From the NCBI RefSeq assembly GCF_003334255.1, contig NZ_QOWU01000058.1: a DNA stretch of 32,432 bases; one strand, given 5' to 3'. Source of the stretch: Escherichia coli (GTDB lineage: Bacteria; Pseudomonadota; Gammaproteobacteria; Enterobacterales; Enterobacteriaceae). Below the pieces are notes generated by a model. That model was not told the origin of the DNA. It did not search any database and worked only from the letters and a program-made list of their open reading frames with translations. Shown piece by piece: positions 25,698 through 25,827 of this stretch (position 1 is its first letter; every line of letters starts with the position of its first letter). The position numbers and the translations under genes were made by a program.

Positions 25698-25827
25698 CCG
25701 TCGTTGACTCCATGCCGATTCGGGTTAATCTGGTAGCGATCCCCGTCGATACTTTTGACGAAGGCGGCAGGGATCGCAGAAGGGTTATTGCTCTTTGCCG
25801 GGGATAAGCGCTCTGCTTATCCCCATC

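Follow-up and report, generated by a model that had tools for sequence, protein, structure and literature searches.

The sgcQ-sgcA spacer and its opposite strand

The stretch of DNA under study (the window, 32,432 nucleotides) is Escherichia coli K-12-like DNA of the KpLE2 region. A comparison of 10 kb with strain MG1655 showed five substitutions and a single 7-bp deletion. Around the spacer between sgcQ and sgcA the sequence was exactly that of MG1655, with a 146-bp query 100 % identical to NC_000913.3, and in this part of the window each coordinate equals the MG1655 coordinate minus 4502283. The deletion (MG1655 4526572-4526578) was found, with a nearby G>A change, at window positions 24286-24296 within sgcR. 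It splits this 260-aa regulator gene into the open reading frames 23830-24435 and 24294-24614, both on the minus strand, and the sgc regulator gene is probably a pseudogene in this strain. The features of the junction are the following:

sgcQ: 25828-26634, minus strand, open reading frame
sgcA: 25266-25697, minus strand, open reading frame
sgcQ-sgcA intergenic gap: 25698-25827, no strand, 130 bp by the open reading frame coordinates and the MG1655 annotation
sgcA start codon and Shine-Dalgarno GGAG: 25697-25695 and 25711-25708 (together 25695-25711), minus strand, complementary to the 5' part of the 136-nt RyjB
ryjB (b4624) as annotated: 25694-25783, plus strand, 90 nt, RefSeq NC_000913.3 4527977-4528066
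RyjB from the annotated 5' end to the Term-seq 3' end: 25694-25829, plus strand, 136 nt
H2: 25736-25777, plus strand, imperfect 13-bp hairpin with arms 25736-25748 and 25765-25777, missed by the earlier note
Hm or linker, CAGAAGGGTTATTGCTCTTTGCC: 25776-25799, plus strand, small G-U-rich hairpin and target-pairing region in CLASH chimeras
H1, RyjB 3' terminator hairpin: 25800-25824, plus strand, 10-bp stem and 5-nt loop with arms 25800-25809 and 25815-25824
Degenerate U-tail, ATCTTATC: 25825-25832, plus strand, T at four of its 8 nt in K-12, RNA 3' end at 25829

The earlier note on this DNA had pointed to a spacer of unusual length for the operon, and this is borne out by the MG1655 annotation: the remaining sgc junctions measure -4, 11, 12, 11 and 16 nt, as against 130 bp between sgcQ and sgcA. 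The operon was also said to be tightly packed with overlapping stop and start codons; the junctions are indeed short, but an overlap occurs at sgcX/sgcB only. What had escaped notice is that the gap is wholly taken up by an annotated gene on the opposite strand. This gene, ryjB, is antisense to the sgc operon. At one end its annotated form shares 4 nt with the start of sgcA; at the other, 17 nt separate it from the dyad H1. The separation of sgcXBCQ and sgcAER by ryjB on the opposite strand had already been stated, while co-transcription of sgcXBCQAER was only suggested (PMC5797941). Among the 25 genome rows listed, NC_000913.3 was the only one to carry the ryjB feature; the genomes annotated by PGAP are without it. 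A search of window positions 24000-27500 on either strand gave no Rfam match at E values up to 1.

The dyad itself was described correctly. Its arms, GGGGATAAGC and GCTTATCCCC, are 100 % complementary across a 5-nt loop, six of the ten pairs are G-C, and on the minus strand the repeat begins 3 nt past the TAA stop codon of sgcQ (25830-25828). The stem is present in the minimum-free-energy as well as in the centroid fold. There were five distinct perfect hairpins of this kind (stem of at least 10 bp, loop of 3-8 nt) in the 32-kb window, whereas 200 dinucleotide-preserving shuffles contained 0.21 on average; scaled to a 130-bp stretch, about 0.001 would be expected. Gap and dyad are real and not products of chance. 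By far the longest perfect hairpin of the window lies in the yjhF-yjhU intergenic region (18207-18245), an inverted repeat whose arms, ATACTGTAAAGCCGGAG and CTCCGGCTTTACAGTAT, pair over 17 bp and enclose a loop of 5 nt. Further perfect hairpins of 10-12 bp are found at 930-961, 8629-8651 and 10850-10875.

Three small open reading frames touch the gap: one of 31 aa at 25712-25807 on the plus strand, one of 34 aa overlapping the gap at 25755-25859 on the same strand, and a 7-codon upstream open reading frame on the minus strand that overlaps the sgcA start. They were rejected as genes for want of conservation; C. amalonaticus, Salmonella and others lack the respective start codons.

Published transcript ends at ryjB

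Term-seq, one of the checks proposed in the earlier note, has been performed on E. coli. The published data place an RNA 3' end at the dyad, but on the plus strand, with none listed on the minus strand. The dominant plus-strand 3' end was mapped to 4528112 (Adams et al. 2021, PMC7815308, supplementary file 1), which is window position 25829, 5 nt past the dyad and inside the complement of the sgcQ stop codon. The authors' classification makes it the primary end of ryjB and an antisense end relative to sgcQ. Read counts of 301585 and 278129 were recorded for it, with ...GGGGATAAGCGCTCTGCTTATCCCCATCTT as the sequence context, and ryjB has three entries in this file on three growth conditions (PMC7815308). 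Near sgcQ or sgcA the tables hold no minus-strand 3' end (PMC7815308), and the operon was probably silent in the LB and glucose minimal medium used. The RefSeq feature thus falls 46 nt short of the mapped 3' end, 90 nt against an implied length of 136 nt. In the cell the RNA ends with the hairpin flagged in the earlier note; the database feature of 90 nt stops too early. The practical gain from this comparison is that a 90-nt ryjB feature in the style of RefSeq and EcoCyc omits the terminator hairpin of the mapped RNA.

Other published data sets agree with a longer RNA. Hfq-CLASH recovered the RyjB fragments 4528042-4528111 and 4528042-4528116 on the plus strand, both running through the dyad (PMC7213987 supplements), and "ryjB (140 nts)" was the insert cloned in a ProQ three-hybrid study (PMC7192607 supplement), in which a preference of RyjB for ProQ over Hfq was reported (PMC7192607). 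According to published data RyjB is an abundant RNA that can be crosslinked to Hfq and that ProQ binds in the three-hybrid assay. A published 5'-end library contains an exact match to the published RyjB start. The 136-nt RNA was predicted to fold with -53.9 kcal/mol (z = -3.24), and a 92-nt core with -43.2 kcal/mol (z = -4.9). The dyad as terminator hairpin of the known sRNA RyjB is therefore not a new element; it is already known.

Transcription on the plus strand seems to reach beyond the hairpin. Abundant double-stranded RNA of the RNase III type was captured at ryjB with p19, and the cluster was reported as 4,526,006-4,526,367 (PMC7373196). We read these coordinates as those of the older genome version U00096.2, because in current coordinates the cluster would fall in sgcR and not in ryjB; taken as such, it corresponds to approximately 25700-26060 of the window, and some 230 nt of it lie in sgcQ. 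In published DirectRNA-seq, for which bicyclomycin was added or omitted, a bicyclomycin-sensitive, Rho-dependent site appears on the plus strand at 4528875, which is approximately window position 26592 and antisense to the 5' part of sgcQ. This site suggests antisense transcription, possibly read-through from RyjB, across most of sgcQ. From the dsRNA cluster and the Rho site together it follows that some transcripts pass the hairpin.

Conservation, strand and function of the hairpins

A scan for SgcQ in one genome per species yielded 80 loci, and SgcA follows SgcQ only in 13 loci, all of Enterobacterales: four Citrobacter, Salmonella enterica diarizonae, Atlantibacter, Cedecea, Serratia, Lelliottia, two Budvicia, Leminorella and Providencia. 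In the retrieved flanks of the SgcQ loci outside Enterobacterales (L014-L081, as against L002-L013 and L073) no SgcA homologue was detected. Within the Enterobacterales SgcQ has been retained far better than the adjacent SgcA, with identities that fall from 98 to 81 % and from 97 to 52 %, respectively; SgcQ homologues of 68-76 % identity occur in Firmicutes, Rhizobium, Treponema and others. The sgcQ-sgcA spacer measures 109-131 nt in 12 of the 13 loci. In Budvicia diplopodorum (L011:4805-5140) it has grown to approximately 330 nt, the element is disrupted and the H2 loop motif is gone, while the sister species B. aquatica retains a compact version of 111 nt. Three metagenome contigs (L096, L116, L119) and two divergent E. 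coli strains were added to these loci. The contigs came from a metagenome scan with CTTCGCCAAAAG-N(25-52)-GGAGTCAA that returned 43 stretches; three adjoin sgcQ or sgcA, and the others, none of which does, were dismissed as chance matches.

The homologues share one order on the plus strand: an invariant TTGACTCC, H2, a variable linker that contains Hm in the longer versions, and H1. Hm is missing from species with shorter gaps. A covariance model built from 12 close sequences found one full-length plus-strand copy in each of the 12 Enterobacterales loci with a normal gap, the three metagenome contigs and the two E. coli strains, with Serratia as the weakest match (E = 0.024). It found no copy in Budvicia diplopodorum and none in 18 SgcQ loci of other phyla, and on the opposite strand it matched the palindromic H1 only. 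In the 17 strongest matches 93.6 % of the cells were paired and 24 of 30 pairs had changed on both sides, which none of 500 shuffles reached, in an alignment that is fitted to the structure and leans toward it. Partners slid by 1-3 columns were paired in 42-49 % of cells. An independent MAFFT alignment of the 12 close sequences gave 94.5 % paired cells and nine pairs changed on both sides. Changes on both sides affected 10 of the 11 pairs of H2 (helix 1 of the model). For H1 (helix 3), 99.4 % of the cells were paired and nine of ten pairs were compensatory; these values are from the covariance-model alignment, since MAFFT on the terminator alone set Serratia, Lelliottia and Leminorella out of register. 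These three genera have unrelated stem sequences at the position of H1 and keep the hairpin. H1 is under selection as an RNA structure that is maintained by compensatory change.

The same substitutions bear on whether the palindrome serves as DNA, for instance as operator for a dimeric regulator such as the DeoR-type SgcR. Two perfectly inverted 10-bp arms, 5 bp apart, in an operon that encodes a regulator would suit such a site. However, the unrelated stems of Serratia, Lelliottia and Leminorella, together with G-U wobbles in several species, indicate that pairing is conserved and not sequence, and SlyA, the sole protein tested on the fragment, did not bind (PMC5797941). We regard an operator as very improbable.

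The RNA is thus conserved with covariation in at least 10 genera, and alignment and model would allow an Rfam family. This runs counter to the view that RyjB varies between strains and is limited to E. coli; a published report had called ryjB polyphyletic in E. coli. Among 5426 complete E. coli genomes, 1657 have the sgcQ-sgcA junction; it is chromosomal in all of them and, with few exceptions, present once per genome. This distribution is consistent with a location in the region of the KpLE2 phage-like element.

The strand on which the structure operates was judged from the tail behind H1 and from G-U pairs. In the 8 nt after H1 the 18 homologues have 4-7 T on the plus strand, with 5-7 in 13 of the 18 and four in K-12, as against 0-4 on the mRNA strand, where 11 of the 18 have none. 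In most genera outside the E. coli/Citrobacter group the plus-strand tail is of the type TTTTTA, the complement of the sgcQ TAA stop and an A-run; the sgcQ stop codon (25828-25830), as reverse complement, is likewise part of the K-12 tail. Cells with a G-U pair on the plus strand outnumbered those on the mRNA strand by three to one in H1, including the common ST131 variant GCTTATCCCT, and by 20 to one in Hm, where 93.5 % of the cells were paired on the plus strand against 73.1 % on the mRNA strand. For H2 the comparison (90.8 % on the plus strand, 93.8 % on the mRNA strand) was neutral or leaned slightly toward the mRNA.

The suggestion that the dyad acts as an internal attenuator of the sgc mRNA has to be given up, because a U-run is lacking after the dyad on the mRNA strand: the 8 nt in E. 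coli, GGCAAAGA, contain no T, and the mapped 3' end belongs to the plus strand. The dyad is the terminator or the 3'-protecting hairpin of RyjB and not an element of the sgc mRNA. The wider expectation of a regulatory RNA locus with a transcript-end signal and a promoter-like sequence proved right, but all of these lie on the plus strand and not on the sgc strand. A processing site that causes differential expression is possible, though indirectly, by way of the pairing of RyjB with the sgc transcript, as implied by the p19 dsRNA (PMC7373196). We assign a probability of approximately 90 % to the reading that the gap is the gene of RyjB, an Hfq- and ProQ-associated sRNA antisense to sgcXBCQAER, with the dyad as its 3'-terminal hairpin.

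Terminator and protecting hairpin differ in how the end at 25829 arises, and in Term-seq a genuine terminator end looks the same as one that was trimmed as far as a hairpin. The end could come partly from such trimming. That it results mainly from 3'-5' trimming of longer antisense transcripts, which Rho ended inside sgcQ and for which the hairpin is a protective stop, agrees with the dsRNA cluster up to approximately window position 26060, with the Rho-dependent site at 26592 (4528875, plus strand) and with the weak RNA tail of K-12, AUCUU. Neither the dyad nor the rest of the gap was called in a scan for consensus promoters and terminators; its terminator threshold is 5 T per 8 nt and ATCTTATC of K-12 has four, and both candidate promoters described below were sub-threshold as well. 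Against trimming as the main source speak the canonical tail of 5-7 T in 8 nt in most other genera, as predicted by intrinsic termination, and the very strong Term-seq peak only 5 nt from the stem. Trimming as the main origin of the end in E. coli is hence rather unlikely.

Even less probable is a role of H1, H2 or both in the sgc mRNA itself. The hairpins might be a barrier to 3' exonucleases that stabilises sgcXBCQ after a cleavage in the gap, or the H2 loop might control the translation of sgcA; either could add to the role of RyjB. A perfect palindrome folds in the mRNA too, a 151-nt RNA of the minus strand was predicted to fold with -51 kcal/mol (z = -2.9), and the gap has been kept across genera within a transcribed operon. 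In H2, plus-strand A-C mismatches, which are G-U pairs in the mRNA, exceeded plus-strand G-U pairs by 10 to 6 cells in 12 sequences and by 11 to 6 in 18, an asymmetry that stems from only a few independent substitutions. The G-U pairs of H1 and Hm favour the plus strand, H1 without a U-run on the mRNA strand is no intrinsic attenuator, and the Term-seq tables are without a minus-strand 3' end here, from cells in which the operon was probably silent. H2 may nevertheless matter in the sgc mRNA too. Its apical loop, ACTTTTGRCGAAG on the plus strand (25749-25764), hardly varies between genera, whereas the stem beneath it covaries freely. H2 as a RAT antiterminator target of the BglG type was rejected: it has no Rfam match, it is not followed by a terminator, and proteins of the BglG family are not encoded in the operon.

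Candidate promoters, proposed role and comparison with known systems

An internal promoter had also been considered for the gap. The consensus scan detected no sigma-70-like site on either strand of window positions 25000-26500; promoter-like hexamers that are conserved do exist, but along the plus strand. Two candidates were read from the sequence:

P1, candidate promoter for the annotated 5' end: 25659-25687, plus strand, TTTACG, 17 nt, TAATAT
P2, candidate conserved promoter: 25704-25731, plus strand, TTGACT (25704-25709), 16 nt, TAATCT (25726-25731)

The annotated 5' end of RyjB at 25694 lies 7 nt past the -10 hexamer of P1. P1 is located within sgcA codons, and its -10 hexamer is kept only in E. 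coli and close Citrobacter. For P2, the octamer TTGACTCC and the A at -11 (A25727) are invariant in all 18 sequences, and 16 of the 18 conform to TTGACT-N16-TAnnnT. The octamer (25704-25711) is TTGACTCC on the plus strand and GGAGTCAA, the ribosome-binding site of sgcA, on the minus strand; read antisense, it contains a near-consensus -35 hexamer. The TCAA of GGAGTCAA is conserved at distances of 0 to 6 nt from the sgcA start codon (3 to 10 nt if counted from the GGAG), and a -35 element would explain this conservation better than translation does. A functional P2 would be predicted to start transcription near 25738 and to give an RNA of approximately 92 nt that ends at 25829. This length matches the annotated 90 nt, while the annotated 5' end and the mapped 3' end combine to 136 nt.

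These observations suggest, as a tentative reading to which we give somewhat less than even odds, that RyjB is an old operon-internal antisense module of sgc loci from Escherichia to Providencia, Budvicia and Leminorella. It would have a core of approximately 92 nt, consisting of H2, linker and terminator, and a conserved promoter whose -35 element TTGACT has its reverse complement in the sgcA Shine-Dalgarno region. One invariant octamer would then serve both strands, the ryjB coordinates in databases would need correction at the 3' end and perhaps also at the 5' end, and the invariant loop of H2 would mark a conserved binding site that is possibly used on both strands.

For the function of RyjB we propose the following sequence of events. 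RNA polymerase on the plus strand transcribes H2, then the G-U-rich linker with Hm and finally the hairpin GGGGAUAAGC-GCUCU-GCUUAUCCCC, and RyjB ends 5 nt past the hairpin, inside the complement of the sgcQ stop codon. The hairpin may act as a one-way terminator that stops RyjB, while sgc transcription, which meets no U-run behind the hairpin on the mRNA strand, would read through into sgcA. By the geometry of the locus RyjB is fully complementary to the sgcQ-sgcA junction, and the 136-nt form covers the ribosome-binding site and the start codon of sgcA. A duplex of RyjB and sgc mRNA as substrate of RNase III could uncouple sgcXBCQ from sgcAER; it could also, or instead, block the translation of sgcA, in a manner resembling GadY at gadX-gadW. 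Control of sgc expression by RyjB is in this sense a prediction. In addition, RyjB may act in trans via the linker: CLASH chimeras with thrS, ydiV, ybiJ and DicF involve the Hm/linker stretch (PMC7213987), and CAGAAGGGUUAUUGCUCUUUGCC is a putative trans-acting seed because the chimeras map there. With a known gene on the opposite strand as the explanation of the odd operon spacer, the site is not to be pursued as a new attenuator.

Stable palindromes in intercistronic spacers are familiar from REP elements and from intercistronic stabiliser hairpins such as that of malE-malF, and the earlier note had imagined a similar device here. The RyjB sequence is different in that it is single-copy and not a member of a dispersed family, and the U-run and the asymmetry of the G-U pairs point to the other strand. 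Although ryjB has been labelled as REP-containing by RepRanger, a REP was rejected: the sequence occupied one place per genome at the lowest and at the median and two at the highest in 1657 E. coli genomes.

A closer parallel is GadY, a cis-antisense sRNA opposite the gadX-gadW intergenic region, for which the processing of the target mRNA and its consequence have been demonstrated. Both sRNAs lie opposite the intercistronic spacer of a polycistronic mRNA, and both loci were listed together for dsRNA and RNase III (PMC7373196). In contrast to the demonstrated target processing by GadY, the likeness of RyjB and sgc rests on geometry and on the dsRNA of the locus.

With the intrinsic terminators of Hfq- and ProQ-dependent sRNAs RyjB shares a 3'-end stem-loop containing G+C, a short tail that is U-rich in most homologues, a 3' end 5 nt past the stem and the crosslinking of Hfq to 3' fragments that contain the hairpin. 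It differs from them in the K-12 tail of only AUCUU and in the evidence for read-through; the short tail may fit the reported preference for ProQ over Hfq. The RNA encoded here is, by locus, strand and a 100 % identical sequence, the RyjB of E. coli K-12 (b4624), to which the present analysis adds homologues outside E. coli and a conserved structure of three hairpins that is without an Rfam match.
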